A stretch of 63,064 nt of DNA, filler included, from Asterionella formosa (lineage: Eukaryota), in assembly GCA_002256025.1 (NCBI GenBank). It is 25 parts of 25 records of this genome, joined end to end, with 100 filler letters (N's around TTAATTAATTAA, not from the genome) between each part and the next. Parts side by side here need not be neighbours in the genome. Positions count along the whole stretch, not along the records: positions 1 to 17,713 come from NKIB01004329.1; 24 more parts are not named here. One strand, written 5' to 3'. The notes under the pieces are model-generated. The model searched no databases. It saw only the letters and a list, made by a program, of their open reading frames with translations, and was not told where the DNA came from. The position numbers were made by a program, and so were the translations under genes. Every line of letters starts with the position of its first letter. The stretch's first letter is position 1. This document shows positions 1 through 62,937 of this stretch, piece after piece.

Positions 1-332
1 GAACCTAGTACTGTGTTAATCGAATACAGTTGATGAAATTGATAGCAACGAGGAAGTTGTCACACTTAAACTTTCACTTTACTAACTGGATTGTTTCGAG
101 ATAATGGTCTCGAAACACTCTTATTACCAGTACTCACATTGCATTTTAACATTTTTTCCTGACCTCTGATTGCTTTTCCTTGCGTTGTGCCTTTTACCAC
201 GTCAGCCCAGGTAAATCTTGGTAGCGGCTGTACGGTTTTAACTGTAGTACTGTTCTCTCTCGTGTCCACTACTGGTATACCCTTCACGCCTGTCCTGTGG
301 CAGTCAGCTCGCATTTTTCCAACACGCTCCTC
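1..332 (-). mobile_element. Ty1/copia LTR copy (1-324, cut at window start) with its polypurine tract (325-332)
   Basis: Reverse complement is near-identical to the LTR at 62580-62937. On the minus strand it starts TGTTGG right after GAGGAGCG. Similarity to the internal RNase H region stops just beyond the PPT. Confidence 0.9.
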
Positions 333-15968: not shown

Positions 15969-16114
15969 GGTGATGGATTACTTGAAATGGCAGTAAAATA
16001 GCACGAACTGTTGAACGTCGAATCTATCAATTTGGATGGATAAATATAGAATGGTACCTGGTACACTACCCGCTAGGGCGGAATAACAGTGCCGTGGTAC
16101 CCTGGTACCTGGTA

Positions 16115-16212
16115 CCTGCAAGTTGCGGTAATGTTGCAGAAGCTAAAAGAATTTAGCTATCTTTATCCTAGATTAAAATGTTAGTTTAAGCAAAATGACC
16201 GCAACTTGCTGG
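16115..16212. mobile_element. 98-bp MITE with ~23-bp imperfect TIRs, probably Tc1/mariner-like
   Basis: Left end TA|CCTGCAAGTTGCGGTAATGTTGC; right end GCAAAATGACCGCAACTTGCTGG|TG; AT-rich interior homologous to 23141-23218. Confidence 0.8.
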
Positions 16213-16223
16213 TGCCAGTTATA

Positions 16224-17713: not shown

Positions 17714-17813
17714 NNNNNNNNNNNNNNNNNNNNNNNNNNNNNNNNNNNNNNNNNNNNTTAATTAATTAANNNNNNNNNNNNNNNNNNNNNNNNNNNNNNN
17801 NNNNNNNNNNNNN
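17714..17813. other. Artificial contig spacer (first of 24 identical spacers; last at 61868-61967)
   Basis: 44 N + TTAATTAATTAA (stop codons in all six frames) + 44 N, repeated between unrelated sequences. Confidence 0.98.
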
Positions 17814-18891
17814 CGAGTTGGCGACAGACGAGCGTTTCGACCTGATAACGCGCCTGGCCAAGCGCCATTTCTCTGTGTGCACGGCACTTATCACCCTCAG
17901 CGACGCACAGCAGCAATACCTGAAGTCATGTACGGGGCTGCCTTTCAAAGAAACGGCGGGCGACCGGTGGATCTGTGACCGACCCATTCGCGATAGCAGC
18001 ATTCTCCTGGCGACCCGCTACGACGCCGACAACAGCGCTGACCAACAACCGCTGGTCAGCGGCAACCCACACCTGCGCTTTTATGCCCGCTGCCCGTTGG
18101 AAGCCTCGAATGGCGACCTAATCGGGGCACTCTGGCTGCTCGACGACAAACCTCGTGAGCTAGATGACGAACAACGCGAATGTCTTCGCGACTTCGCCCG
18201 CTTGGCCGCCATTAGTGCCGAGCGTGATCGGCTCAAAAGCCGTCTACGCACCGAGGCAGAGGCCCTGCGCGAAAGTGAACGACGCATGGCGCTGGCTATC
18301 GAGGGAAGCGGTACAGGGATCTGGGACCGCGACTTGCGAACGGACGAGATCCATTACTCCGATGGCTGGAAATCCATTCTGGGTTATACCGCCAACGAGG
18401 TCTCGAACCTGATTGAGGACAGTTACAAGCGTGTTCACCCGGAGGACCTGGCCTATGTACAGGCCGCCATCCGTGCACACCACGAGGAAAAGCTGCCCAG
18501 CTACAGCGTGGAACATCGCTTGCGCTGCAAGGATGGCAGTTACAAGTGGGTTTCCAGCCGGGGCAAGGTGATCAGCCGTGACAGCGCCGGTCGGCCGCTG
18601 CGCATGATCGGTACCACCAGCGATATTAGCGCCATGCACTCGATGGCCGAGCGACTGCAACAGACCGTGGACTTGATCACCAACCTGACCAACGCAGTGC
18701 CTGGTCTGGTCTTTCAGTACCGACGCCCAAGCGAAGGCCCGGCGTGCTTCGACTATGCCAGTAGGGGCATCTGGGATATGTACGAGCTAACCCCCGAAGA
18801 GGTCACCAGCAGCGACGACGCCATTATCCGACTCATTCATCCAGACGACCTAGAGGCCTATCTGGCGTCCATTGCAACCTCACAGACCTGA
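17814..18891 (+). CDS. Bacterial-type GAF-PAS(-PAS) sensor protein fragment (architecture of diguanylate cyclases or histidine kinases); 5' partial
   Basis: ERFDLITRLA and PHLRFYA..PL...G..IG.L.LLD.KPR GAF motifs; PAS_3/PAC (GIWD, VHPED, EHRLRCKDGSYKWV..RG); second PAS truncated. Contig is visibly much more GC-rich than its neighbours and has no introns. Confidence 0.85.
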
Positions 18892-30287: not shown

Positions 30288-30639
30288 TGTTGAAAAAATT
30301 CGAGCTGACTGCCACAGGACAGGAGTGAAGGGTATAGTGGACACGAGAGAGTACAGTACTACAGTTAAAACCGTACAGCCGCTACCAAGAGTTACCTGGG
30401 CTGACGTGGTAAAAGGCACAACGCAAGGAAAAGCAATCAGAGGTCAAGAAAAAATGTTAAAATGCAGTGTGAGTAATAAGAGTGTTTCGAGACCATTATC
30501 TCGAAACAATCCAGTTAGTAAAGTGAAAGTTTAAGTTTGACAACTTCCTCGTTGCTATCAATTTCATCAACTGTATTCGATTAACACAGTACTAGTTTCA
30601 AGGCCTACGATACGGTCGAATACGGTAGTTGTTACAACA
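30288..30639 (+). mobile_element. Solo LTR (352 bp) with 5-bp target-site duplication GATAC
   Basis: TGTTG...CAACA ends, GATAC at 30283-30287 and 30640-30644, near-identical to 62580-62937. Confidence 0.93.
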
Positions 30640-33304: not shown

Positions 33305-36300
33305 NNNNNNNNNNNNNNNNNNNNNNNNNNNNNNNNNNNNNNNNNNNNTTAATTAATTAANNNNNNNNNNNNNNNNNNNNNNNNNNNNNNNNNNNNNNNN
33401 NNNNATTACATGTATTATTAACTTCACTTTTATGGCGCCTTGAAACTATTCTATTTATGATAGGGCAACCGGTATGGTGCTTCCTGGCGTGAACAGCCTG
33501 GGTTTTTGAAGAAACGAACCCTACTGATAGCATCATAACATATGTATTGACTTCTGGCGCTGTTAAGCGGGGATGTAGTAATTCTATGTACTACCCAATA
33601 TACTAGAGTAAGAATATTTTGTAAAGCTTGTCGATCACTGAACTATTGGAAAATTCTTGGATATTGAATCATTGAATGAATCCTCGATCCATCAACAAGA
33701 AGGTACTGCCTTGCTTTGAATCTAACTCTACCCACCATCACCTCCTAATAACCATCTTTCCATCCCCTTGCTGCCTGAGCGTGCAGACAATTCTGCTTTT
33801 TCCTGCTGGGTTTCATTTGATGTCATTCAAGACGATGATTCTTGTATTTCCTCCTGGGTTGCATCATACTATGTCTTTAACAAAAACCATATTCCATCAT
33901 GTCTCACGCAAATACTCCCCATGGCATCTTGAATGCCGCCTACAACAAGAGAGGGTGTATTCATTGTATTGGAAGAAATTAATGACGAAATGGCACCACA
34001 ACCAACCTACTCTTGGAAAGTTCGTCATGCATCCATAATAGCACTATCATCAAAATGAATATTTCTATAACCAAATGATGCTCTTCCCTTTGAAGGAGTC
34101 TCCCACCAATTTTGGGCATATCCATAATGACATTCAAAGAAATGCAACAAATAAATGATGTCGAAATTGACAGTGACAATGTCAAAAGAAAAAACAAGCA
34201 ATGTTCCATGCATTTCATGATGTTATCATTCTTCGCTGTTTTGTAAGAAGATATATATTATCACAGATCTAGTACTAATTTACCTAAAAAATAATCTTGC
34301 CCAATTCTGAAATCGTGACATATGCAATGTTGTCAGATTCTTACGTACAACTGTCCCTTTGTCAAAAGTATGGAATCCGTGGTAATCTTTTTCAGCAATC
34401 ACTCTTGCAGTTACAGGGACCGGCTCAAAAATTCTCATCACAAATTCTATATTTTTCCCATGAATTCTTGATAGAATCAAAATCGGGATGAAAATAGAGG
34501 ATCAGCATATAAAATTTAAGTTTGAAGAGACACTTTTGAGCGAAGTATAAAGGCGAGTTTACGAAAGACTAATACAGTACCACAGAGCAGATCACAGAAT
34601 TTAATGGTATTCAAGCTACAAAGACCTCTGGGTCCCGATAGTCAATAATTCCTAAAAACGACCAATCCACCATGATGAAAGGCGCTATCCAAGCGGCCAA
34701 CCAAGGACAGAAAGAAAAAATCATTCATTTGAGACAGAACCATTCAATAGTAATGAAATCATCCAATAGAACGAGAGTGCAGAAAGAGAAGGAGGGGATG
34801 GAAAAGCAGAAAAAACCTAATGCAGGCGGAGCACTGAAAATTGGTGATTGCATGGACGTCGATTTGGCATTAGACATAAACACTACAATTGAGTAATTTA
34901 TAGCAATGATATCAACACAGAGTAGACAGAAGAAGGGCCATGCAAAAAAACAAGAGATATAAAAAGAAAATGAAGAAGTTTAATCCCTTTTTATGACAGT
35001 GAGTACTGCTACAATGCAAGAAGATGAATGCAAGAATGGCAAGAATATGCTAAACATTGACAAGAACGAAGTGGAAGGCAGAGAAATAAAAAGTCACTGA
35101 TGAAGAAATTGCGCCAGAGCTGGATGCACTGCTCAAAGCAATAATTTTATGATGAAAAAGACAATGAAGTCAAAGACAAAGACAATGAGTTGGAGGCCCT
35201 GACATCACCAATTGTTATGAATACTTCAAATAGAACCATCAGAATTGGTGCCCAAATAGATTTCTTTAATCCAATCCACATTAACAGTCCAATTCTCCCG
35301 CTGACATGGGAAGTGCAGTCATTGAGAACTGAACCAAGAACAAAGCTACCACAAATGTTTTTTGAAAAGTACGTCCACATGAGGAGTGCCAAAGTGACAA
35401 CCACCCAAACCTTTCCACTGCCCCACCCTACATGGGCCATTGATCGCAATGACGGGCTCTCTAGAAATAGAATAGGAAGAATGCGTTAGTATAAAAATGA
35501 TTAATATATGTTTTCGTTTGAAGGGTAAAATGTGTTGTAAGTGCCCCAGCATCTACCGGTAGTTCGAGTTTGTACATGTGAAATCCTCCATATGTATTAT
35601 AGTTTAATCACCCTGTAATGTTCGGTAAAACAAGTTTTTTACTTAGGAAAGGATTAAGCTCAATGTCTCGATAATTGGACCTTCCCTGGACTACCAATAT
35701 ATTACCTGGTTCCCAGGTACCTGGTCCCTGATACTACAACCGGCATGTAAGAATACTGTACTCCGCCTACTATGCATATATTTCTTTTCAATTTCTCCCA
35801 GGACCTGGGACATCCGGAAAACGTGCTTAAAACCGTTGAACGGTAATAATTGAGTTAAGTTTTATTAGCTACCTCCAGAACTTAATATATATATTGAAAG
35901 CACGTCGTGCAAGGGCTGGCACGCTTCTGTGGAGGCTTGGTTTGCGCTCTTTACCCTTGCTGGCTGCTTAAGTGAAAAATAAATAAGCGCTTGGTGCTTA
36001 AGTTGAAAGTAAATAAGCGTTTGGTGCTTATTACTTAGGTAATTTCTTTCCAAAGTTACCTAAACACAGGATTCCGCTTTGACTACTTTGAATGCAGCAA
36101 GCACAAACCCAATTACCGGTATTCTCATCTTCGAGTCAGTATATATTGTGTACGTGTTTAAAATGTACTCTAAGTATGGTGACTTGATGGTGGAAACAAT
36201 GATATGTTGATGACGATCACAAGATACAACTTTTCTAAACAGATAAATAGTGAATTGTAAATCAATTTTGGTTTTGGGCCTGATCTCTTGTAGACAAAAG

Positions 36301-36479
36301 CGGATCATTGTAGAACGGCGCATATGTACGAATAAGAAGCGTTTCAATGCGACGATGAGGCATCGAGATATCTTCTTTGTCATTGAGCCCACTTGTGGGT
36401 TTCCGATTTTACCGTTTCTACTATATCTAATTAAAACTCACTTTTAACGCGCTTTCTATGACTACGAAGTTACAAGTGG

Positions 36480-36668
36480 AATTTCATAGCATGGCCTACC
36501 AACCAGTCCGTGTGCTTCTCTAGTTTTGTTAGCGTAGGGGAGTCCCCAACCATCTTTCGCGAAAGGTGATTGTCTTAGCCGCAGCGTTAGGGGAAACCCC
36601 GACAGGCAAAATTCTTGTAGGGGGGGGGGGCAACCCATTTTTCCTTGCACACCACCAGGCAAGGCCAT
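36480..36668 (+). repeat. Dispersed hairpin-rich repeat, best-preserved copy
   Basis: Homologous to ~1315-1505. Contains GGGGAGTCCCC, CATCTTT-CGCG-AAAGGTG, GGG-GAAA-CCC and GGG-GCAA-CCC stems. Confidence 0.7.
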
Positions 36669-37623
36669 GTAGCTAAAGGACGCACATCATACATGTACAT
36701 GCGTGAAACAAATGACTTTTTCATAGTAAATATTGTCATATCGCGAAAATTGAAAAATTTTGTTGTACAAAATGTAAGATTACCTTGTTATAGTGATCTA
36801 CGCAGATCATAGTGCTGATCTTAACCAGATTTTGACTGGTAGTAGTGTTGCAACCAACCAATCTGGCTGGTGTGCTTTTTCAGGTTCATTACGTAAGTAG
36901 GGCTGATAAAAAAAATTACTGATGAAAACACATTCTGATCAATAAACCTGGTGACGTGATGTCAAAAGTATCTGTGCATCTTTTTTCTGAGAAATGAGCT
37001 CAGACAAGAAGCAAATTTCTGATAGCAAAATTGAGATTGAAAACTCCATTTTGCTGTTAAACTGTGATATGCTATTTGCGTAGCCAATCATAATTTTGGT
37101 TTAGGGTGGGCGATCCTTGTTGCTGTTTCATGGGCTGGCATGTTGTGCTGGTCTGGTGTGTTTGGTGTTTGGTGATTGTGATTGTGATCGTGATATATAG
37201 TAGTACTATATATAAGCAAAGATTTTTACCACCACCATATTTCACCATCAGTGAACAATCGCCAATATCTGCTACTTCCAACAGCTAGCTAATTTTGGGG
37301 ATACTAAACTATTTTTATTAGCTAGCTGAGGAATATTCTCATAGCTGTTTACGTATGTGAAAGGTGATGCTTGCCACATGCAACAATACCTGCAGTCAAA
37401 ATTTTCCAATTTTCGGGTTGGTTGTTAATGCTAAATTTTTTTTTCTAGTTTCCCCGACTTTTTTGATGAGGCTTGTCAATAAAACCCTATAGTAGCTACT
37501 TTTAAGACTAATTCATATTAATCATCTGTAAAGACTGATTTGATACCCCGAAAAATTAATTAACATGACAAATCTAGTGACTTTCAAACAAGCAACCATG
37601 GTGGTACCTTTTAAGACCACTAA

Positions 37624-38515
37624 GGCCGTTGACCCAAACCAAAACCCAAAAACTTTTTTTGGGTTGGTTTTGGTTTTGGTCAACTGACGAAAAAACGATG
37701 CTATCGGTTTTTGGGAAATCCTAAATGCTGTCAACCACCCATCTACTGTGACATAGGATGACAAAACCATTATAAAAAAATTAAATATTTCTATTAGACT
37801 ACTTTTATAAATGAAATATTATGATTCCTATTTGGGAATTAGTTAGTTTTCCCCACAATTTACTGGTAGTGCCGTAAATATATATACTCCGACCACACTT
37901 CTTCATGATGAAATACAACTGACAGCAGTTTCAGCAATCCAGACAGAATTGAATGCCGCAAACAAAAACAATGGTGTCTTGGTACAAACGAATTGGCGAT
38001 GCGCCATTACCTGCAACAAAACATCTACTGCTTACTAACCAGATATATTGATACAATGGGACGTGGCGATGCACCAGTCCCAGTTGCCGGAGCTATGCCG
38101 CCACCAGCAGCCTCAGTTGAAGAGGACAACGAAGATGAAGTCCTGGTGGTGACAGAAGATTGATTTATGTGTTGCGCATAATAAATCGAAGTCGATTTGT
38201 TGTTGTTGTTCTCGCCAGTGTGGTATGGTACCTGGGTACCTGTTACCCTGGTACCTGGTACCGTATAGCTATTGTTGTATATAGATATGATATACTGGTA
38301 CCGGCATATGATGCATGCGTCCTATATGTAGTGATTCTGCGACGATAACCTAAACGTAATGCGTTTGGGTAACTTATTGGGATATGGGCACGGAATCCCC
38401 TAAACGTAATGCGTTTGTTGCATTGGGTTTTTCACTCCTGATAGCATCGTTTTTTAGGGTTACCGAAACCAAAACACTGTTTGGTTTGTGTTTTGGTCCA
38501 CCATTAGCAACGGCC
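37624..38515. mobile_element. Non-autonomous PIF/Harbinger (Tourist-like) element with TAA target-site duplication
   Basis: TAA|GGCCGTTG ... CAACGGCC|TAA, plus subterminal inverted blocks AAAAAACGATGCTATC (~37690) / GATAGCATCGTTTTTT (~38440) and CCAAAAC/GTTTTGG repeats at both ends. Confidence 0.75.
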
Positions 38516-39175
38516 TAAAACTTTGAAGCTAACAGGCCTGTCTATTTGGATTCATTAGATAGTATGTACAACTGTTACACTAAACAGGTGAGGTTGTCTT
38601 TACAAAAATAGGGACAGTATAGTATTGGCTGGGACCAGAATGTACTAGCTTCATATGTCATATTCGCTAGTAAAGCTGTACTATTTTCTAGTCGAAAATC
38701 AATCAAACAATCAAATAGTGTTCAAACCGTGCGTTTACTCCGTTTACCAGTGGCTTTTCTGTCAAAAGTCGCTGTAGCGGTGGCTTACAGTTTTTAGCTT
38801 GTAGTCTACTCTACCAGGGTACTGGTACCTGGTACTGCATACATCGACATGGCGACTGGTACCAGTAGTCTACCAGCAGGTACATCGAACAATGCGCGTA
38901 CCTTATGTATGACTCCATGCCTGCGTCTGCACCATCACTGTCACACATAGTCACCATCTAACGCACCGCCTGCAAGTGATGGCTGCCTATATAAAATACC
39001 GGTATTATCATAACAATCGTTATAAATCATTGATTAATTTCCAATATGTATATACAGCATATATATACAGCATAATTCATTTACAAATGAAACGAGGTTG
39101 TATTTTCTCCCACAAATGAACGGTACGCCTTTTGCTTATTGTTTGCTGAGGATCTGTTCGACCAAGTTCAGCACG

Positions 39176-40710
39176 ATGTTGCGTAATTGTTTGGCTCAGT
39201 TGTGGCTGCTGCTTCTTCTTCTTTCTTCTTCATTGCTTGTGGTCCATGCGTTGGACGAAAAGGAATGCTTGTTGGGAGACGACGGAACATGCTTAAGTAC
39301 ATCCGCCACGAACGAATTATCATGCCACGATAACGAACAGTCATGTTCATTTTGGGCCAGTGAAGGCGAGGTATGAGCTGTGTTGTGTTGTGTGTCCTAT
39401 TGCGTATCTCTCACTTACACTTTTTGACTATCCATTAATGTGTGAATCTTGTTGTATATCACAATAATAGTGTGATGCCAATCCCAAATACATGTTGTTG
39501 CAATGCCCGAAATCTTGTTCCGTATGTCATGTTCTTGACATTCAAGCGTTGATTGATCAAAAATTAGCTCCTGACATTGATGCGACTGAATTAGGTGTAC
39601 CTCAAATTGTGGACCAGGACCGGGCTCTGGAAGTAGAAGCACGTATTCAAAATATTACCAATTACTTTCAAACCATTGTCAAAGTGCAGGACGAGTATCA
39701 AAAAGTACGAAAGGAATGCAAAAATAGACATGAAAGCTGCGCCTATTGGGCAGTCCTTGGAGAGGTGAGAGTTGCTATAATTCTCTGTACATTTTCATTC
39801 CACATCACGAATGATACACACACTTACACTCACACCGCCAAAAACATTTATTATTTCTATTACTCTGCAGTGCGAAGCGAACCCTAATTACATGCAACTT
39901 CAATGTGCCCCGTCCTGTTACAGTTGCCATTTGATTGATTTTGATCAACGGTGTCCATACGATCCCAAGGCTCCTATTATTTTGAATCCAGGGGATTTGG
40001 ATCAACTATTTGTCAATATCACCACCTCGCCCGAAATGGCTAAATATGGACCCCTTATTCATAGCATGCCACATCCTCCAAAATCCTCAACAATTAAAGC
40101 AGGCCCATGGGTCGTGACTTTGGAAAATTTCCTCACAGACGAAGAATGTCAAACTCTCATTGATCTGGGTGGCGTTGAGGGATACCAGATTTCCCAAGAT
40201 GTTGGGAAAAGGAAATTCGATGGATCGTATGATGGAAATATCAACAAGGGACGTACGAGTACAAATGCATGGTGTCAAAAGGACTGTTTCCATAATTCCA
40301 CGACCCAACAAGTCCTTCAAAAGATTGAACACTTAACTGGTATTCCTGATGAAAATTCAGAATTCCTTCAACTTTTGAAATATGAAGTGGGACAATTCTA
40401 CCAACAACATCATGATTACATCCCTCACCATTTGGAGCGATCTGAGGGGGTGAGAATCTTGACTGTCTTTTTGTACTTAAATGACGTAACTGCCGGGGGT
40501 GGAACAAACTTTCCACTCTTGGACATTACTGTCATGCCCAAGAGGGGAAGAGCACTGATTTGGCCAAGTGTTTTGAATGATGCTCCCAATGGTCCGGATC
40601 ACAGAACCGAGCATCAAGCACTTCCTGTCGAAGAAGGAGTCAAATATGGGGCCAATGCATGGTTGCATCAAAAGAACTTTAAGGAAGCCTTTAATCGGTC
40701 GTGCCATTAA
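39176..40710 (+). CDS. Secreted/ER prolyl 4-hydroxylase alpha-like 2OG-Fe(II) oxygenase with two ShKT domains; exons 39176-39370, 39471-39764, 39871-40710
   Basis: Signal peptide; two ShKT motifs (C..WA..GEC..NP.YM...C..SC..C); RTS..AW, QLLKYEVGQFYQQHHD, TVFLYLNDV..GGGT.FP, H...PV..G.KY. GT-AG introns restore the frame. Confidence 0.92.
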
Positions 40711-41500
40711 CCCTACATGTTGATGAAGGGGCGAATGATGAAAAAGGCGCTGTCACATTATTTACCTTGGATTTTAGATCTTTCTTGAGTTTTAGGTTTT
40801 CTAGTTTAGGAAAAACTGTGATTTATATAGCAATTCTCATTGCAAGGCCACCATGCTTAGTGTCCCTGCCAAACCAGTTGAAGGTATCCTTTCGGAGATA
40901 CACGAACATCATTTCACCTACAATTGTAGTATTGTGCTGGCATATTTTACCTGGTTGTATCATGTACTTGTCCCCCACAGTTGTACTGTCATGCAAGTCC
41001 TCGACTGGATCACCAATGCTTCTATGGAATCATTTGATTAAATACAAGAGACTCCCAGAATTTATAGTCACATCACATCATCACATAGATACTGTATCGA
41101 TCATCATCCTTTAGGATGGTTTCATAATGTAAAAGGTGTCATCATCTTTGGGATGATGTTCTCTATGGTGAATTCATTGCTGATCATATTGTTGCCATTC
41201 TCTTCCTTTGCAAACTCATGTCAGCCTTGTTTTGTTGGATATCCTTCGCCCACTTATATCGCATATGAAAGTTCTTCCAGTTCACATTCATTTTACTGAG
41301 CACTGATGTATTAACCTAGTTTCAGCCCTACCAGTACTCTGGCATGTCAGAGCCACTTTGGGTTCATTCATCCCAATTGCAGATGGATATTTGTGTTCAA
41401 AACATCTCACGCACAGAATGAGACAATTTTTTAATCAGATGATAAGAGAAGCTATTCTTGGTTTGATCATATCAATAATTATAGCTCTAGATCTCATTGA

Positions 41501-42820
41501 TTATACCAATGGATCGATGCTCAAAACATTCATGGATGTTGTTATTGGTAACATATTGGTAGCAATGGTTTTCAGGACTTGCAAAACATAAAAAGTTTTG
41601 AGCATGTTAGCTTCCAACAGAAGGTGCAATCCATCTGATGTTTGCGCATCTCTTGTAAGATTCCAGAAATCTATTATTGTGACATTCATTTCAATGGATG
41701 AAAAGTACTCTTCCATTTCTCGATTGAACACTACAGCCCGTTCTCGACGTTGGCCTGGTTGTTTATGATCTAAATTTCTTGATTGAGCCCCCACCGTGAT
41801 CCATATGACATGGGCTTTGCCTCTTTTGACACAATCTATCCATTGCTGGTCCTCAAAAAGGTTCATAAATGCTTTTATAGTTCGACTTGAATCAAGGCGC
41901 AAATGAAGGCCTCCTTGCACCAGTAATACATTTGGTGAATAATAGTCGGATGATTCACAGTTGCTCTTTACTATATCAGGAATATCATTGCTCCATGAAA
42001 TAGAAAAAGGTTTCAGATGAGCACATACTCCTAGCTGATGAGAGCTTTCAGCATGCTGGAAAAGTCCATCATTTTTGCGGCAAATTTCATGTTCACTGAA
42101 TTGTCCATCGCATTTGCAATGCTCATACGTAGGAACACTGGTTGAATAAATACCTCCAGATATATAATCACTCCTCATACCAATAAAAATACCTTGATGC
42201 ATATGCCGTGATAGCGAGTCCCCAACGTTGAAAATGTGTGAAAACTGACTTAGAGTTTCACAGATTTCAAAAGTGGTCATTGCAGGAATATCACACTGAT
42301 AGGGAACAAAGTAGGATGGATGGCGCTCTTTTTCTTCGGACGTTGCATTTTCAATCTCAGGGTTATGTATCCACCTTCTAGATCCAAGTTTAATGGCTTT
42401 CAGCATTTTCTCCAAGGAAGTGCATGGTGCATCGTGATGTGCCATCATATCATTCATTGTCAAGGAGAATGGGCGAGAATTGTTTTTGATCTTTTCTCTC
42501 CAGCCACCATCACGAAGGACGTCATTTCGTTGGAGGACAACATTGTTGCCAAACTTGTTACAAAATTCAAAGTCTCTTTTGCTGATAATGACATTAGCGG
42601 AGTCCAGAGGAAAGGTATAGTTGTTGTCAAGACGAGTGGTATGGTGTACATAAGTGCTATGATTGGTCCCATTCTCCCTCTTTGACACGTAGTCAGGTTT
42701 ACGAAAGCAATTCGGGGTCATGATGCCCATGAAAATAAAGTAGATACAAAGACAAGTTCCGCCACCAATCACTCCCAGAAGGCGCACATTAACAAGAAAT
42801 GAACCACTCCTCGGAGCCAT
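41501..42820 (-). CDS. Type II membrane SGNH/PC-esterase-like protein (putative polysaccharide O-acyltransferase or esterase)
   Basis: N-terminal TM segment, VGDSLSRH (GDS) and SDGLH (DxxH) motifs, conserved Cys. ATG at 42820. Confidence 0.65.
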   Translation of the reverse strand: MAPRSGSFLVNVRLLGVIGGGTCLCIYFIFMGIMTPNCFRKPDYVSKRENGTNHSTYVHHTTRLDNNYTFPLDSANVIISKRDFEFCNKFGNNVVLQRNDVLRDGGWREKIKNNSRPFSLTMNDMMAHHDAPCTSLEKMLKAIKLGSRRWIHNPEIENATSEEKERHPSYFVPYQCDIPAMTTFEICETLSQFSHIFNVGDSLSRHMHQGIFIGMRSDYISGGIYSTSVPTYEHCKCDGQFSEHEICRKNDGLFQHAESSHQLGVCAHLKPFSISWSNDIPDIVKSNCESSDYYSPNVLLVQGGLHLRLDSSRTIKAFMNLFEDQQWIDCVKRGKAHVIWITVGAQSRNLDHKQPGQRRERAVVFNREMEEYFSSIEMNVTIIDFWNLTRDAQTSDGLHLLLEANMLKTFYVLQVLKTIATNMLPITTSMNVLSIDPLV

Positions 42821-43727
42821 TTTGGGGAAACTCAAGCTTGTTTAATGCTCTCTCTTTTTATTATAAGGGTATAGGAATGCATAGCTAACTGATGGCCAAC
42901 AACAGAAATCAATTGAAGGTAGGACTAGCTGGTGTAGCAAAAATTCAGCATGAAGGATAGTTTTTTTGAATTGTTGTGGTCGCCATTAATGATGGATCGG
43001 CCAGTCCCTGTGTGTTCACCTGTGGTACAATGTGACGAGGCTACCGGTATCATTATTTCACATACCGGCATATATTTATCATATTCAGCCATACAAAATG
43101 ATTTTTTTTTGTTTTGATGTTGATAAGTATGATACGCTATTTTATTTTATTTTATTTTATCCCCCCCTTCTGCTCCATCCTCTATGTAATTATGTACAGT
43201 ACCAGTACATACAGGTAACACATAAGACCTACCGGTAGTAAATAATAAGGCACAGTCGAGCGAAAGTGAGATTTAACATGGTTACAGTAAGGAGCAGGCG
43301 GACTCTTGGTGGCGTTGGGTCTAGCGGGGTACCAGGTAAACTACTAACTATTAACTCTATATAATTACCGGTAATGGTTGAGATCAGTTCCCGGTATGAC
43401 CGGTACCGGCACATGGTATATGATTCAAGGCAGGGGCTTTGGATTCTGAAAAGTTTCCTGTTACAGTACTACCTGGTCCCACCGGTATCATAGTATCGTC
43501 GTATGTACTAGTGTTTTTATCCCATCCTTGTCGCACTCAATTGTGGTCAATTAATTTGCTTCATTTAAACGACAGGGTTTATGTACACCAACCTCGATTG
43601 GCTTGATCAACATAGAGAGATCATCATTTTGTTCAGAGAGCAGATCGAACAAGGCCTGTTGCATTAACACATTTATATTACAAATGAGTATTACATTCAT
43701 TCATAGTATAAATGAATCAGAGAAATA

Positions 43728-46271
43728 ATGTATTCTCAATGCATGTTGCGACAAAATCATTTCTTCGGGTATTGTTTGTTTTCTTTCCTAGGTGTTTATT
43801 TTGGATTGACGCTCTTTGTCTTTCTTCACTTTACGACTTTTCTCGAAAAGAACAATAGCAATACGCATGGTATTACGCAATTTCAACTCATGCCAGGGAG
43901 GAGGATGCCAATACATCATATTGATGGTCAACACCATGACGACATGGAAAAAAGTCATCAACAACGAAATGGATTGGTAGTATTAGCACCGGTATTTTCT
44001 AAACACAAAGCCCAACAAGCACTCCTTCAACATGGAGCAGAAAGGATTCGGCAGCCAATAACTGCATTTTTAGAAAAACCAATGCAGGATATCATACCAT
44101 CATCTCGCAATCAGGGAGCACATCCAGGGGATGTTGGGATACCACCAGAATATATCATCCCACTCCCACTAAGGACTCAAGCTCCCAAGGATCTTGTCAA
44201 GGTGGTATATCCCAAATTTCAATCCTGTCATACAGATCTACCTTCGAAACTTCCTGTGGATCGAGGATATCAACTAGTAATAGTAAATAAAACAGCTGAT
44301 GGACACAACAACAAGATGGAGCATTGGAATGCACAAGCTGCACCAGATCCACTTTACAATGACTTGAAAAATTGTCCCGTCAATGGTGATCCCTTTTTAC
44401 CATGGATTCATGATATTGTTCCATCACACGATGGGACGAAGATTCAATTTGTAGCACAAAACAAACGACGATGCATTTCCGGGGATGCCTATCGAGATTG
44501 GGCTTGGGACATGCAACCGCAAGTGGCATTATTTCAACATGTGTCTGTTAAACGCGTGAATCGAACCAACGCTCAACGAAAGGCACCAGCGTTGTGGCAG
44601 TCATCCAATAATGACGAAGAATCCTTCTACCAACTGGTACCCATGGAAGATGCTGATACAGATGGGAAAGAAACACGCTTCATTTGTAGGTTCCACATGA
44701 CATCGGTAGATACAAACACATTGGGCCAACTATTATTTGCCGGGGAAACTCTGTCGGCCTATCCATTCAATTATGAATTTGTATCGTACAGACGTCTACA
44801 TCCAACCATGCTCAACCCTCGAGGGATGGACCATGGAAGTCCATATTTATCAACCTTATTATTTCATTGTCCAGTCCCTCAACCGCTTCAACACCTTGTG
44901 GCAAGTGGTGAATCTGTATTGTCGGATGGTACACCCATGCTCCATCTAGATCTGATCCCCATTCGTACATCACCACGATATGGTACATCTGAAATTTACC
45001 TTTCCGAGGAAATGATTGGCCCCAAACAGAATTGGCATTTAGGGAATGTAACAAGAGTGTTGTGGCGAAAAAAAGAAGATTTAATTCCTGGATTTGATCC
45101 CAAGAAACGTTGGGGGAAAACTAACATTCTACCAGCCGTGCAAGCGAGTGGACGATGGACGAATTTACCGATTTGTCAGCCGCCTTTGATACAACAGCAA
45201 CAACAACAACAAGTTGGCGAAGAAATACCAAAGGCCAATACAAAAACGAAGAAACGTTATGAATTGGTAGCCTGCGTTTGGGCATCCGAGTCATATTCAA
45301 CACGAGGAGCAGCAAATCTACCCATGGACACTTCTACTGTGAGTCGTTTTCGTGAATGGCTTGAATTCGCCTTTTTGGTCGGCTTTGATCATGTGTATGT
45401 TTATGACAATTCTGCAGCCAACACCCAAAATGGGAGTCTTACGACTGCCCTAGAACCATTTGGTACCAATGTTTCTATCATTGAATGGCCTCATGTTGTA
45501 TGCAACAATAACAAACCAACCGACAAAAATTGTGGTGAACGATCCAGTCAATATGCAGCCGAAAATTCATGTCGAACAAGGTTTGGACCACACACTGATT
45601 GGATCGCTTCATTTGATGTGGATGAATATCTTATTCCAATGGGCAGCTACCAAAGTTTGAAAGAGGTTGTACGAAATGCTTATTCCAAGGGGAATAAAAT
45701 TGTTAGCTTTCGAAGTACGCGGACCAAACTTCGATTGGATCAATCCGAAGTGATTGGTCCTAATACTAGTCGCCGACGGAAGAAGAAGGACGCGTTATTC
45801 GTGGAAGCCTACAATTGTGATACAGATCCTGGCCCAAAACCAGACGCATCCGATCGAGCTCGAAAAGAAATATATCGCGCTGACCATGTCTTGTATCACT
45901 TTGTACACTATTCTCTGGTTACCAAAGACACAATAGTTTGGTACAAGGATGATTCCAAGCATTGGAAACGTGAAATCCAAGAATTAGCTCCTCCCCCATA
46001 TATTACAGATGAATTCAATGAAGCTGTTATGCTGCATACCAAGGTTGTTGAAGAAGAAAAGGAAAACTGGGATCAAATGTGCAGCCCCATGACAAAAAAC
46101 TGTGCAATTGGCTTCCCACAATCACTTGAGCTTCGTAAAAATGACGCTTCTTCGAACAATGTTCATGAGCATAATTGTTATACGAACATTCGACTGTCCG
46201 ACTACTGGATTCCAAAACTGAAAGAAGCCATGATCAAAAGATTTACAACCACAGTAGCTCAGTTAGGCTAA
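43728..46271 (+). CDS. Type II membrane glycosyltransferase, GT92/DUF23-like
   Basis: 847-aa ORF with N-terminal TM helix, REWLEF...VGFDHVYVYDN, SQYAAENSC and DxD motif in WIASFDVDEYL. Confidence 0.8.
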   Translation: MYSQCMLRQNHFFGYCLFSFLGVYFGLTLFVFLHFTTFLEKNNSNTHGITQFQLMPGRRMPIHHIDGQHHDDMEKSHQQRNGLVVLAPVFSKHKAQQALLQHGAERIRQPITAFLEKPMQDIIPSSRNQGAHPGDVGIPPEYIIPLPLRTQAPKDLVKVVYPKFQSCHTDLPSKLPVDRGYQLVIVNKTADGHNNKMEHWNAQAAPDPLYNDLKNCPVNGDPFLPWIHDIVPSHDGTKIQFVAQNKRRCISGDAYRDWAWDMQPQVALFQHVSVKRVNRTNAQRKAPALWQSSNNDEESFYQLVPMEDADTDGKETRFICRFHMTSVDTNTLGQLLFAGETLSAYPFNYEFVSYRRLHPTMLNPRGMDHGSPYLSTLLFHCPVPQPLQHLVASGESVLSDGTPMLHLDLIPIRTSPRYGTSEIYLSEEMIGPKQNWHLGNVTRVLWRKKEDLIPGFDPKKRWGKTNILPAVQASGRWTNLPICQPPLIQQQQQQQVGEEIPKANTKTKKRYELVACVWASESYSTRGAANLPMDTSTVSRFREWLEFAFLVGFDHVYVYDNSAANTQNGSLTTALEPFGTNVSIIEWPHVVCNNNKPTDKNCGERSSQYAAENSCRTRFGPHTDWIASFDVDEYLIPMGSYQSLKEVVRNAYSKGNKIVSFRSTRTKLRLDQSEVIGPNTSRRRKKKDALFVEAYNCDTDPGPKPDASDRARKEIYRADHVLYHFVHYSLVTKDTIVWYKDDSKHWKREIQELAPPPYITDEFNEAVMLHTKVVEEEKENWDQMCSPMTKNCAIGFPQSLELRKNDASSNNVHEHNCYTNIRLSDYWIPKLKEAMIKRFTTTVAQLG

Positions 46272-47524
46272 AACCTCAAACCACATTGACAACTAAAACA
46301 ATGATAAGTCTTCAACACTTGACCAGTTCATTTTGCACTTATTCAATGACATTTTCAATGTCTATCATGTGTGCATCTGATCAATGTCTTTATTGTAGGT
46401 TCAGTTGACTGTGACAGCCAACTGGTGAATCACACATCCGGCTTTGGCTCAGCAACTTTTCAGAACTCCTCCCTTAGCAATTTCGAAACGCAATGAAAGA
46501 CTTGAACCAGCTCCAACAACGACCTCTAACAAAGGCTATAGCAAGTCCGGTGGTTATCACTCAGTTGCAATATGTCCCCTATGATTAGAATTATGGAGTA
46601 CGACACTGGGCACCACTGGATCGTTATCTGATAATGGATTATCGTCGTTTAGATATGTACCAAATATCATGCAGTTATCGAAAATGCAATTCAGTGAAGA
46701 GATTTCATGCTCCAGACTGTTTGATGGTCACACTGAAAGTTGGAGCTCCACCTGGGGACTTTGAAAGGAATTATTTGAAACATCAACTTATTCAGGCACG
46801 AGTTCAATGTCTATCTTTAAACCATTCAAATGAAAGTGTTAAAAGTATACTTAGTTTTGGGAAGGGTTGCATTACTTCATGTGTGAAACAAAAGAAACAA
46901 AATTAGAGTATTTCATGACTTTGATGAAAGCTTAGAAAACATTGGATGGTCATTTGAGTTCTCTCACAGTTAAGAAAATTTTCTTTTCTGTTATATTTTT
47001 ATTGATAGATGCTAATGATTTTATTCAGATGCATAACGACAATATGATGGTGAGCAACAAGGCACAAAGTGTTCTTCAATTTTTACTGCATACCCAACAG
47101 TTGAAGAAAGCTTGTCTGTGAATGTACTTGGACAGAACATGTTTGATGTCATTCAGTTATTGTGAATAACACTGCTCCTGTCCAGATACTTTTTACAATT
47201 TCTTATTCAGATAATTAAAGTGTGAACTATTCTATTCCAGCAGTGTAACTTTAAAGGAGCCATGAAAACAATGCAAAAAATAAATAGTTACTGCATGCAA
47301 AATGAGAAATGTTTATTAAAAGGGTGATAATTTTGGTTGATGCTGGGACCAAAGCCTGTTACTATGATACTGCCTAGAAGGCAGGCTCCGTTTCCCTAAT
47401 CCTTGAGAGTTCTTTTGTTATACCAGTACCTCTGTGACACTACAATAGTCATGACATTTCATGAATAATCTGCCATTTTCCCTCAACCAAGACCTTTACC
47501 ATACATGTTTGATAATAAAAACCT

Positions 47525-49687
47525 TTATTTGCTCGATACAAATGGCCATTTTAGACTATTGAGACAGGGAATGCTGCTTTTGCATAGTGCAACAACTGTG
47601 ATTGGCCCCTGGGTTTCAGGAATATTGCATCGGGCAGAATCAGCAAGTTTTTGTTCGGGACTTAAATAAAGCAAATATACCTTGCTAAACTTGATAAGCC
47701 ATCCAGCCTCGTTACACATTGCTGTAAACTTTTCCAACACATTGTCAGGTTTGGAAGTATGTACCTGAACACCACACACAAATTGGCCAAACTTCCAGAT
47801 CAGATCAATTGCAGGGAAATTGGAGTTTTCGGGCACATACATTCCATTTTTTTCCATGATTTTTGGCAACTGTTTTGAGGGAAAGGTTTCAATGAAATTG
47901 CAAATTTTCAAAGGCAAGAGCCTCTCGAAAGTAACATTTGCATTGATTGAACAGCGATTGATCACAATGAATTCAAAAATCTGACCACGAGCATCATTTG
48001 TCAAATCAGGGTTGGCACAGATATCTAAAAGTACTTGTTCGTGTTTATGAACAAAAGCCATAATTTCCTTCCAAAATAAGATTCGATAGCCTTCTAGCAC
48101 CAAAGGAAACAAAGGCTTATAATGATTAGCCTCCTTCCCCTCAGCAGGAACTGAATATTCCATGTCATGTTGTATTACATCTCCTGTATTTGACAAAACG
48201 CAACCAACTGCAGATGCTGTGATATCATCCCATGTACATTTTGTTTTTTTGTCAGGCAAATTTTCAAGAGAACACAGAATTGAGTGTAATTCAGCCTCTT
48301 CATAGTCTTCAAAAGAAAACTTGTAGGAAATCAGTTTCCTAACCTGCAAGGGCACCCCACCAGTTACCTCGAAGATATTTTCCTTGTCACTTCGTGTTTC
48401 CACTTCCTCAAAGGCTGCACATATTTCTTTCAAATCCATGTTACAAGGGTGATTGTACTGCTCAAACCCTCGATGTCTTGCCTTGTAGGCAACCTCATTG
48501 TCTGTTGAAGCAGAGATGATGGATACAATGCGGCGGCCTCTCTTCATAATGTTGTTGATGGCACTAAAAGGAAAGGGAAGCGTACCCAGATCATCGGCTT
48601 TGTCTAGCACTGGTCGATAAAACAATCTGTTGACTTGATCGAAAACAAGGACCCATCTCCTGTCCATACGTCGAAGAATCAAGTCAATGGCTTTGACAAA
48701 ATTATTCAGACTTACCAATTGTTCGTCCAAGTCTGAGCCGATCTGCCACATGAGAGCCGTTAATGTAGTACCAAATGAACTGCAGATTGCAGTGTACAAG
48801 TCGCCAACACATTCCCATCGATCACAGTCTGGAATAAAAGTAACGAGGTATTTGCAGCTGCTGTCATATTGCAGGGTACGAACCAAGTTGACACGTGAGT
48901 GCGACTTGCCAATTCCATGCGGTCCTTTGATCATGATTCCACCCCGACGATTTTTGTTGAAGGTATCGTCAACCACTTTCATCATTTCCTTCACAATTTT
49001 CGGGCGATACAAGATGCCCCTACTCTCGCCATCATCGAACCGCTCCGGTTGGACGTCTTTCATCCAGTACCCATCTATGGGGGAAAAGGCAGATATAGTA
49101 GGATCAGAATTAAGCTCGTTCGGCTCAATCTTGTAGATATGCATTTTCTGTTCAATGCTCCGCTCCTTCTGTTCCTTCTTCAAGTGATCAAAGTAATCGT
49201 TGAGCTTCTCCTTGAGCAGCACTGATAAGGAGTCTTTGATCTGGTCACCACCTTGTTTCTGGCGCTTCGTCATTCTTTGGTCGTCCAAACAGTAGTGAGT
49301 AAGCGTCGGATAAATGACAAAATATGATGCGTGAGTGTTGCATGTCCAATACTTGTTTCAGCTGTGGAATAGTCTAGAATGGAATGCAAGGTATTCCATG
49401 AGATCAGAAAACGTACCAAAGTCAGGTGCGACCACAACAAACGTTGCAGATTCAACAACACGATCTCCAGGATTCAAGGCTGGAACATCAGCAACCGGCA
49501 CTTGAGTTCCAGGTGGGTACACACGGAGCTGCGCAGCATCTATGGAACTTAGACTATTTTCACATTTCTTCTTCACGGCATCCTTCAAGTCGGCAATCAA
49601 ACTATCCTCATTCAAAGTGACAGAAGAGGGATTTAGTGCTGTGTGTCCAAGAAACAACTGGAACCAAACCTTCGTTGTTGTCGACAT
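47525..49687 (-). CDS. Crinkler/RHS-type (CR) protein: N-terminal ubiquitin-like header, P-loop NTPase, C-terminal restriction-endonuclease-like domain; junction between header and body unresolved
   Basis: Header VWFQL..IADLKDAVKKK...IDAAQLRVY...FVVVAP (ATG 49687). Body 49288-47525 has Walker A GPHGIGKS, Walker B LVFDQ, TGGVPLQV, then RGQIFE and PENSNFPAIDLIW..GVQV. GTACGT donor at 49416. Confidence 0.75.
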
Positions 49688-50534
49688 GATGGTATCTGGT
49701 AGACTACCGGTACTCCAACAATCATACAATGGAAATGTTGTGGGGAACTACCGGTTTTTTGTGATTCACAGTACCTGGTAGGAGTACTAGGTACTAAGAT
49801 GAGCTGTTAAATTTGGTTGTCACTCTTCCGTAGCCATGATTTGCATTTGAAATAATATTCCGGTTTCCTATCGCGGTCAATACTGTCATGATGTTACAAC
49901 TCCATCACTCCGCGTCCTCCCTCTTTAGAATGGGGCACCCAGCTCCTCTACCATGTTGCCCAGCTGGAATGGTACCTGGTAATCCCTACCTGGTACCAGT
50001 ACCATCAGGGACTCCTGCTAATCCTTGTGGGTTTTGTAGAGAATTGAAATATTCTGACATTCATAATTAGCAACTCACATTTGGTATACCATGATACCAG
50101 CATTTCTTTAGGTACCATACCAAAACTTGCATCACGAAATATTCCATTCGAATATGCTGGCCTGCTCGAAACCTCACTACCGTTGTATGGTACAAGGTAC
50201 CTGGTACCAGGTACCAAGATGGGTATGTAATACCATGTTATGTACCGAGAATATACATAGAAGTGGTACCAGTACGTTAGAATGGACTGTTCACCTTTTA
50301 TATACGTATTCAGGTATGTCAATATTCCTCCGCTAGAAAACTAATTTAGTATCCTCTAAAATTTATTTAATATGACTACGACGGCATTGCGCTTTCGCTC
50401 GTGCGCCATAATAAAGAGATAATTTCATTAATGGAAAACGTCAAATAGGAATTCCTGGTGCGCCCGAATTATGAGTACAAAAATTAAATGCAAACACACA
50501 ACAATCACCCATCACCCATCACAACACCAACACC

Positions 50535-51088
50535 ATGACATCGAAAGCGCCTCGACAAGGCAATGCCTTGCCTCGAAAGAAATTGTCTCCTGAAGAGTTG
50601 GTCAGTGTTCAGATTTGTCTTAACAATGTGATTAGGGAGCTATAAGCTAAGAAGGCTAAGAATTGTGGAAAAAAGCCTTATGGTGCTATTTCTAGGACAG
50701 TATCAGCTAAGCAATGCATTTTCCCTTGGATAGCTGTTAACCAAGTGAAGAATGATCTAAAACAAAGTGCTAAACTAGAAGTGAAGTCTAGTACTACTAG
50801 TATGTATACTACTTCTGGTTCGTCCCTCTTTCAGCCATCAACTGCAACCATGGTGTCTACATTGACACCTGACCATTGTGGCCCTACTAAACCCCAACTC
50901 TTGAATGCTGATGGCAGCTTTGCCTTGTTATTTCCCAGTAATCTCATTCATAATTCATATAAAATTGTCGAGGAGGAAGAAGATGACAACAATGAAGGTG
51001 TGAGTGAGCATTATGATAGTCAGTTTACAATGATGGGCACTTTGGCATATGAAACTGGAAACAATGGTGTGCTTACCTGGGGAAGTTT
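50535..51088 (+). pseudogene. Interrupted ORF remnant, possibly the N-terminus of a DNA-transposon protein
   Basis: MTSKAPRQ...VIREL*AKKAKNCGKKPYGAISRTV...FPWI continues in the same frame as ORF 50745. One in-frame TAA. Family assignment is tentative. Confidence 0.35.
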
Positions 51089-59470: not shown

Positions 59471-60770
59471 NNNNNNNNNNNNNNNNNNNNNNNNNNNNNN
59501 NNNNNNNNNNNNNNTTAATTAATTAANNNNNNNNNNNNNNNNNNNNNNNNNNNNNNNNNNNNNNNNNNNNTGCTTTTAAGGGTCGTCCCCATGTTGAAAA
59601 CATATATTGAGCACAGTTGTGGTTAAATGTTGTCTTTATGAATTCAGAGGGTCAAAAATCCTGGCGCAGCCATGACTTCATCTTTGTACCAACAGAACCT
59701 ACAATCTACATGAAAAAACCTGGCGCAGTCTTCTTACTTCGTCGGGAAAAATTTTGATGCTACAAGTGTGACCTTAAACAAATATCGGTATGACAAGAAG
59801 GAGAGGACACAGCCAGTGGTTATTCTTAATATATTCACAGTACGAACGCCATATTCTATTGTAATAAGGGGAATACGGGAAGCAATGCTGGTAGTGCAAA
59901 CCTACAGTTCCACAGTATGCACGTAGAAATGAGTACAGTTTCTCAGTACGAACGAAATAATTCCTATTGTAACAAGAAGGGAAAGACGGAAATACTGGTA
60001 GGGCAAACCTAGAGTCTCACACTTGTAACGATGACCTGGTACCTACCAGCCAGGAGTACCTGGTGGTACCATACAGTATAGCTATTTGTTAGTATGTCTG
60101 AGTGCAACGTCAAAAGACCCAAGGTACAAGGTACCAGGTACCAGGTACCAGGTAACAGGTACTCCCCTGGTACTAGCCCTGGTAGTATGTATCATAGTAG
60201 CCCTGAGTAGGCCTTGTATACCGGTACCTGGTCCCAGGTACCATACCTACTATTCATTAGCTGAGGTCAACACACTCAGCATCACGATGCCATTCCAGTC
60301 ATATTCACAATACACCAGGTATGTTTTCCATATATTTTGTATCTTCAGAATTCATACGAAATATAGTTTATGTAAAAGAATAAGAGAATTCATATTGGAT
60401 GCTGACAATATCGATGGTAAGGATGATTGTTGATATGCTTCATGCACCCACTTGCCGACAACCACATCGCGCTTCGATTTTCTCCATCAATTCATGCCCA
60501 ATAGCACTCCGAAGATTTGCAGTCGATAACACACACTAATTCAAATAGATATTTAGTTTAGCATTTCAAATTCAATATTAAATGTTTCGTTCCGTACCTG
60601 TTTTGTCCTCATTAGGGTTGGTTGTTGCTTGCATCCTCACGAATCATGTCGCGATATTTCTCGAGATCCANNNNNNNNNNNNNNNNNNNNNNNNNNNNNN
60701 NNNNNNNNNNNNNNTTAATTAATTAANNNNNNNNNNNNNNNNNNNNNNNNNNNNNNNNNNNNNNNNNNNN

Positions 60771-61867: not shown

Positions 61868-61968
61868 NNNNNNNNNNNNNNNNNNNNNNNNNNNNNNNNN
61901 NNNNNNNNNNNTTAATTAATTAANNNNNNNNNNNNNNNNNNNNNNNNNNNNNNNNNNNNNNNNNNNNA

Positions 61969-62832
61969 AAAAGCACCAAACAAGATCAGCAAAAGCTACG
62001 ACGGGTGTTGGAATACATAAATGGAAGTATGGATGTGGAATACACCATTGGAGCCGACGACATGGGCAAGATGAGGTCGTGGGTGGATGCGGCTTTTGCC
62101 GTGCACCCTGACATGAAGAGCCACACCGGTGGCGTGATGTCTTTTGGAACTGGAGGCATCATATGCAAGTCGACCAAGCAGAAATTGAACACAAAGAGTT
62201 CGACGGAGGCTGAATTTGTGGGTGCCAGCGACTATCTCCCGAACACACTGTGGGTAAAAATGTTTCTTAAAGCACAGGGATACAAGATTCAAGAAAGTTT
62301 CTTCGAACAAGACAACGAGAGCGCAATTAAACTCGAGAAGAACGGACGAATCTCGGCAGGGCCAAAGTCTCGGCATATCAACATCCGCTATTTCTGGATT
62401 AAGGATCGATCGGTGGATGAGGGAATCACCATTCACCATTGTCCAACGTTGGAAATGTTGGGGGATTTTTTTACGAAACCACTGCAAGGAAACCTGTTCA
62501 GAACATTCCGAAATGTGCTTCTAGGAGCTGCGCACGTCGATACCCTGACTGCCAGTTCCTTGGCAACAGCCGAGGAGCGTGTTGGAAAAATGCGAGCTGA
62601 CTGCCACAGGACAGGCGTGAAGGGTATAGTGGACACGAGAGAGAACAGTACTACAGTTAAAACCGTACAGCCGCTACCAAGATTTACCTGGGCTGACGTG
62701 GTAAAAGGCACAACGCAAGGAAAAGCAATCAGAGGTCAGGAAAAAATGTTAAAGTGCAATGTGAGTACCGGTAATAAGAGTGTTTCGAGACCATTATCTC
62801 GAAACAATCCAGTTAGTAAAGTGAAAGTTTAA
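61969..62832 (+). mobile_element. Copia RNase H end of pol; ORF runs ~250 nt into the 3' LTR
   Basis: WVDAAFAVHPDMKSHTG, KLNTKSSTEAE, EQDNESAI, RHINIRYF, MLGDFFTKPLQG. Confidence 0.95.
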
Positions 62833-62937
62833 GTTTGACAACTTCCTCGTTGCTATCAATTTCATCAACTGTATTCGATTAACACAGTACTAGGTTCAAG
62901 GCCTACAATATGGTCGAATACGGTAGTTGTTACAACA
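62572..62937 (+). mobile_element. Polypurine tract (62572-62579) and 3' LTR (62580-62937, 358 bp)
   Basis: GAGGAGCG followed by TGTTG...CAACA. Boundaries confirmed by the TSD-flanked solo LTR at 30288-30639. Confidence 0.93.

Follow-up and report, generated by a model that had tools for sequence, protein, structure and literature searches.

Elements of the Tc1/mariner/pogo superfamily leave footprints when they excise, and both these footprints and the mechanism that produces them are textbook matter. As described in the available parts of the primary papers, the 3′ cuts at Tc1/mariner ends are exact, and the 5′ cuts lie 2–3 nt inside the element (PMC2170065), and end joining then leaves a footprint between two TAs (PMC2874221). 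For the Passer family, elements of which are present in nine stramenopile species according to the available text (PMC7386202, PMC9976928), footprints of 0–4 bp are given (PMC9976928). The 6-nt insertions analysed here are like the canonical IS630/Tc1/mariner footprints in that a TA is doubled around a few terminal bases, but differ from them, as far as the available parts of those papers describe, in that one 4-nt palindromic core dominates (PMC2170065, PMC2874221).

The insertions lie in an LTR of Asterionella formosa. The window (the whole stretch of 63,064 nt that was analysed) consists of separate contigs strung together by N linkers, taken from an assembly of 68 Mb in 15,436 contigs, so the three LTR copies that it contains are not neighbours. 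Matches to this DNA in other datasets are mainly from freshwater metagenomes. One 1.1-kb contig of high GC (window 17770–18891), with a bacterial-looking frame that we take from its motifs to be GAF/PAS-like, is likely to be a contaminant. The features relevant to the LTR are as follows.

1–324, minus strand: LTR copy A, truncated by the contig start, with both 6-nt gains present
270–277, minus strand: site 1 scar of copy A, GGGTA-TACCAGTA-GTGG, which is TA-CCAG-TA on the LTR strand
125–132, minus strand: site 2 scar of copy A, GAG-TACTGGTA-ATAAG, which is TA-CTGG-TA on the LTR strand
30288–30639, plus strand: solo LTR with a 5-bp target duplication, GATAC
61968–62832, plus strand: end of a Copia-like pol frame, which extends into the 3′ LTR
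62580–62937, plus strand: LTR copy C, a 3′ LTR after a polypurine tract, with site 1 empty and site 2 filled
62766–62773, plus strand: site 2 scar of copy C, TACCGGTA, that is TA-CCGG-TA, the unmutated form

The solo LTR has a bare TA at both site 1 (30335–30336) and site 2 (30474–30475). The preliminary description had placed 6-nt, TA-duplicating differences among these three copies, and on realignment both their positions and their nature were reproduced in full. An 8-nt remnant of a polypurine tract is found at 325–332, before copy A on that copy's own strand. With TG...CA ends, a 5-bp target duplication, a polypurine tract and pol upstream, the host repeat has the features of a Ty1/copia LTR. 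The end of the pol frame is presumably RNase H-like, judging by its motifs, though it gave no Pfam match at E 0.001. Inside the 3′ LTR the scarless form has 82 pol codons, and one or two scars raise this to 84 or 86; the +6 gains thus preserve the pol frame, adding two codons per scar. At locus L027 (750–1508) two copies of the LTR form an inverted pair, arranged head to head.

Both indels are real and both are gains. A pattern search of the genome found site 1 filled in 3 of 77 LTR copies, two with CCGG and one, the window copy, with CCAG. Site 2 was filled in 8 of 74, seven with CCGG and one, again the window copy, with CTGG; this count misses two further carriers, L005 and L009, owing to a substitution. 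In line with the preliminary description, these are footprint-like gains at TA, among copies that are predominantly empty. In a metagenome scan, four of the seven hits were copies of the LTR, with site 2 empty in all four and site 1 empty in all three where it could be read. The same inserts are present in independent contigs, so a single assembly error cannot account for them, and an identical 6-nt gain occurs at other TA sites in other repeats. Filled LTRs include both 5′ and 3′ copies whose flanks differ, showing that the scars have spread by reverse transcription.

All three carriers of the site 1 gain also carry the site 2 gain and share one substitution (77% support). On a substitution tree of 32 LTR copies, from which indel columns were excluded, the site 2 carriers form no supported clade (support 10–30); L005 and L009 stand apart and some empty copies fall among the carriers. 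This calls for recombination, for a further gain or for a loss at site 2; a single gain followed by recombination is the simplest reading, the other two being possible as well. It would seem most likely that there were two events rather than a spectrum of them, the five filled sequences tracing to about two events that were spread by retrotransposition.

The preliminary description had treated CCAG as a footprint type of its own. This did not hold, as the other two genomic copies filled at site 1 and the other seven found by the site 2 pattern are all CCGG. Of 324 columns the window copy and L006 differ at 2, each of them a CpG transition within one of the two cores, so both gains started as a change from TA to TA-CCGG-TA. 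The CCAG and CTGG of the window copy are CpG transitions of CCGG and not separate footprint types. The two substitutions of the window copy fall on precisely the two cores out of its 13 CpGs, for which the chance is about 1 in 78. A special hypermutability of the core CpG was considered and is unsupported, the figure being 6 of 14 cores against about one third of the CpG sites in repeats generally that have a CpG-transition partner. Methylation is presumably the cause of the core transitions. The scars may serve as a small clock, being born as CCGG and ageing to CCAG or CTGG.

The 8-letter word is also abundant beyond the LTR. In the window TA-CCGG-TA occurs 21 times, where 0.3 are expected from 30 dinucleotide shuffles, and TA-CCAG/CTGG-TA occurs 22 times, where the same shuffles give 1.1. 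In a 400-kb sample of the genome, a non-random set of nine long contigs chosen by length among those with transposase hits, the corresponding counts are 135 against 3.4 expected (an excess of about 40-fold) and 101 against 15.9, while TA-CCWGG-TA is found 153 times against 3.7. Among the 16 possible dinucleotides XY, the pattern XY-CCGG-XY is enriched in this sample for TA alone. The density there is about 0.3 words per kb, or 0.55 with the decayed forms included, mostly outside long reading frames; frames of at least 200 codons hold 14 of the 135 TA-CCGG-TA words, compared with 29% of all TA. Scaled to the genome this corresponds to about 23,000 words that are intact and 14,500 that have decayed. 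The preliminary description had seen in footprints the explanation of the motif throughout the window, which is tenable for the 8-letter TA-CCGG-TA word but not for the TA-CCWGG-TA arrays.

The CC and GG of the core equal the terminal bases of two resident families of TA-duplicating elements, F2 and F3. F2 is about 2.46 kb in length and begins, after a flanking TA, with CCGTAAAACC and ends with GGTTTTACGG before the second TA; its copies are up to 100% alike, it has 0.8-kb derivatives and 82 exact ends are found in the genome. F3, which begins after its TA with CCGTATAC, has 308 exact ends, so that the two families together account for 390, all of the form CCG...CGG. Where F2 or F3 is inserted within other repeats the empty paralogues have a single TA, demonstrating TA duplication. 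The F2 transposase has a DDE_1 domain (PF03184, above cut-off) of the DD35D type, the 35 residues being counted by hand with the leading D of the DD pair as the starting point. F2 therefore has the DDE_1 catalytic domain, TIRs and TA duplication of the pogo superfamily. Neither BrkDBD nor HTH_Tnp_Tc5 was detected in F2 itself; among 109 homologues PF09607 (BrkDBD) was found on three and PF03221 on one. F2 fits the Passer family as described in the available part of PMC7386202, though it may instead be Fot-like, elements of that kind being likewise DD35D and likewise found in stramenopiles. A profile search of the genome gave 93 DDE_1 matches among 116 candidates. DDE_3 had no match among 16 scored candidates in this incomplete assembly, in a search that left out PF01359. 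The IS630/Tc1/mariner source named in the preliminary description is therefore correct in so far as TA-duplicating elements with matching ends exist, but these are pogo-type (DDE_1).

Among 70 flanks and 7 metagenome hits, a small sample, there was no case of an element in one copy and a scar in another at the same site, so we infer the link to pogo-type elements. Scar flanks and element flanks match in part, T being favoured at position 3 in both, while a depletion of A at position 1 is confined to the scars. The word TA-CCGCGG-TA, an expected side product, is nearly absent, with one occurrence in 400 kb. At L039 a young F2 copy directly adjoins a TA-CCGG-TA word, a pattern to be expected if one spot were used repeatedly. 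Contigs from four further runs were aligned to window positions 33405–51088, a range outside which the LTR itself lies. Run X9 has a 6-nt gap, placed only to within a 460-bp piece whose sole motif is at 43042, and runs X2 and X6 have 6-nt gaps placed only to pieces that span 49705 and four other motifs; none of the 12 indels listed, out of 78 for this range, is at a motif. The 6-nt gaps in these contigs hint at polymorphism.

Taken together, the scars are probably excision footprints of pogo-type F2 or F3 elements, made twice in one LTR lineage and then copied by retrotransposition. An element with CCG...CGG ends would have entered the LTR at a TA and subsequently left it again, and this would have happened twice in the same lineage. 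Two or three terminal bases would remain on each donor end; end joining would then give TA-CC+GG-TA, while 3-nt CCG overhangs could pair through CG and be filled in to the same TA-CCGG-TA word. A cut staggered by either 2 or 3 nt would, with such ends, leave exactly this word. The pol frame extending into the 3′ LTR would survive the net gain of 6 nt, and each scar would be carried by reverse transcription into both LTRs and to new sites. A CpG transition would later have altered each core of the window copy. Such hit-and-run transposition would leave far more scars than elements, with the scars hitch-hiking on the retrotransposon, and would tie the most over-represented short word of the genome to a named, young and testable element.

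It is unlikely that the scars were instead left by another CC...GG-ended family, moved by a transposase other than those recognised here. The flanks would allow for this, since their bias is unlike that of F2/F3 insertions, with A adjacent to the TA at a frequency of 0.13 at 308 scar flanks versus 0.27 at 60 element flanks. Suitable ends also exist: a small TA-CC-N-GCAAG element of about 100 bp has 706 exact ends, with one copy in the window at 16113–16214, a TA-CCGGCAATT family has 21 ends (12 CCGG and 9 CCAG), and older families with TA-CC-N-GCAA ends could likewise yield CCGG. However, these families are old, being 80–88% alike with decayed ends, whereas the LTR copies that carry the gains are 97–100% alike. 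Moreover, the ends of the small element are mainly CCAG/CCTG (92 among the first 100 listed), which fits CCWGG rather than CCGG, and for the TA-CCGGCAATT family neither a second end nor a transposase was found. Somewhat less probable still is that host repair adds CC and GG at TA-centred breaks, by the same process that gives rise to XY-(C/G/GC)-XY insertions. That stereotyped and source-less class is about ten times commoner, with 66 XY-S-XY and 11 XY-GC-XY among 191 minority insertions, and of the 50 polarised gains of 3 nt in which a 2-bp duplication is exact, 48 have C or G in the middle. That class, though, accepts any dinucleotide and has a G-then-C polarity, whereas CCGG is restricted to TA, has a C-then-G polarity and equals the ends of a young resident element.

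Loss of an ancestral motif, through slippage or TA-microhomology deletion, was the alternative that the preliminary description had set against its own reading. While the lack of clade support among site 2 carriers would suit it, and one paralogue indel outside the LTR (L050) is a minority loss of the motif, the empty LTR copies are the great majority and are more diverse, those from other samples are empty too, and motif loss cannot account for the 40-fold excess of the word. We consider it very improbable. That an assembly as fragmented as this one has produced the inserts as an assembly or sequencing artefact is a negligible prospect, since identical inserts are found in up to 10 separate contigs with differing flanks and the word decays through CpG transitions as real DNA does.

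The pogo footprint does not explain either the 7-nt TA-CCWGG-TA motif or the XY-(C/G/GC)-XY class. The 7-nt motif is mostly chained (89 of 153 in the 400-kb sample), and no isolated gain of it was seen among 951 paralogue indel contexts or among the 191 minority insertions. It matches the old inverted-repeat element of about 100 bp, the ends of which are TA-CC-N-GCAAG...CTTGC-N-GG-TA, with the same N at either end in 7 of 9 pairs; besides the copy at 16113–16214 the window has further ends at 2722 and 9666. The N may belong to the terminus, or CNG may be a 3-bp duplication made in a favoured target, as given for NuwaI in the available text of PMC4482050. An origin of the motif as decayed CCGGG was rejected, the sister product CCCAG/CTGGG occurring 7 times against 153. 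Chains of mixed orientation are seen in the window at 656–671, 16055–16115, 38252–38867, 49973–50212 and 60132–60154, and on paralogue evidence the chains are older than the CCGG class.

The commonest small gains convert XY to XY-C/G-XY, XY-GC-XY or XY-GCC/GGC-XY at many dinucleotides (L034–L128 and the LTR loci). These gains amount to about 3% of substitution alleles, and 77 of the 191 minority insertions belong to the XY-(C/G/GC)-XY class; part of the 3-nt XY-S-XY gains are perfect tandem repeats, which slippage could make. The LTR itself has three or four 3-nt gains of the class. No source for them was found among the element families examined. Harbinger-like families were rejected, having 3-bp duplications (TNA at one end; ANT). 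One element ending in GGTGC has an AA duplication and, searched by exact pattern, exists as a single copy. Another, 2.6 kb long and C...G-ended (L170, 3456–6066), has CGTCTGC inverted ends and a TC duplication of 2 bp and is without an intact frame; similar ends occur in 11 other places with varied flanks. DDE_Tnp_4 matches were inspected at the first 25 places and at 8 of the 150 beyond. Loci L131 and L140–L155 hold a very young Harbinger-like family (DDE_Tnp_4), many copies of which are 99.8–100% alike, with one end reading AGGGTCG after TN and the assembly breaking at a fixed point. At L203 (520–3590) and L087 (163–1280) there is a two-frame PHIS-like element with GGGCGCGC ends and an ANT duplication, as for Pangu.

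A wider reading, possible though doubtful, is that small insertions here come mainly from stereotyped break-repair scars rather than from slippage. These would comprise the pogo TA-CCGG-TA word, with tens of thousands fixed at about 100 per resident element, and the commoner XY-(C, G, GC, GCC)-XY class, whose origin may be a transposon of an undescribed kind that duplicates 2 bp, or a host nuclease combined with untemplated G addition. Because reading frames survive insertions of the +3 and +6 classes, these could in that case build low-complexity protein sequence, and also promoter words across stramenopiles, an example being the M94 motif discussed below.

From this LTR the preliminary description had also concluded that footprints form at a very high rate, which the counts do not bear out. 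For 58 distinct substitution alleles, 2 events were counted in the LTR, with about 74 substitutions on the tree, while three pogo families have 3–4 events per 2123 substitution alleles (Fisher p = 0.01 with 4), so that the ratio in other repeats is about 1/20 of that in the LTR. The latter ratio rests on two events, for which the 95% interval is 0.24–7.2, in a repeat chosen because of its indels, and a very high rate is therefore not shown by it. A true local excess in the LTR is possible, LTRs being promoters. Heavy traffic is better argued from the presence of about 37,000 words against about 200 elements.

A literature search that covered few subscription papers, with supplements outside its scope, found no report of TACCGGTA as a footprint in diatoms. 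What is new here is that gains in one LTR family are counted with their polarity, that CCAG and CTGG are traced to CpG change, that the rate is checked and that the LTR gains match young CCG-ended pogo elements in age. As set out in the available parts of the Passer papers (PMC7386202, PMC9976928), that family resembles F2 in its DDE_1 domain, DD35D triad, TA duplication, short TIRs and length of 2.2–2.7 kb. The scars of DNA transposon excisions in rice were likewise found by comparing related sequences; in the available text of that study these are heterogeneous, with 8 of 94 perfect and many deletions and fillers, whereas in the alga one stereotyped word recurs (PMC4423477). The same 8-letter palindrome, TACCGGTA, is known from another stramenopile, Phytophthora infestans, where it is the promoter motif M94, over-represented upstream of genes and published, according to the available text, as a candidate transcription-factor site; a text search of that portion found no mention of transposons (PMC3597505). 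M94 may be a pogo scar too, and motif finders will take such scars for promoter elements.
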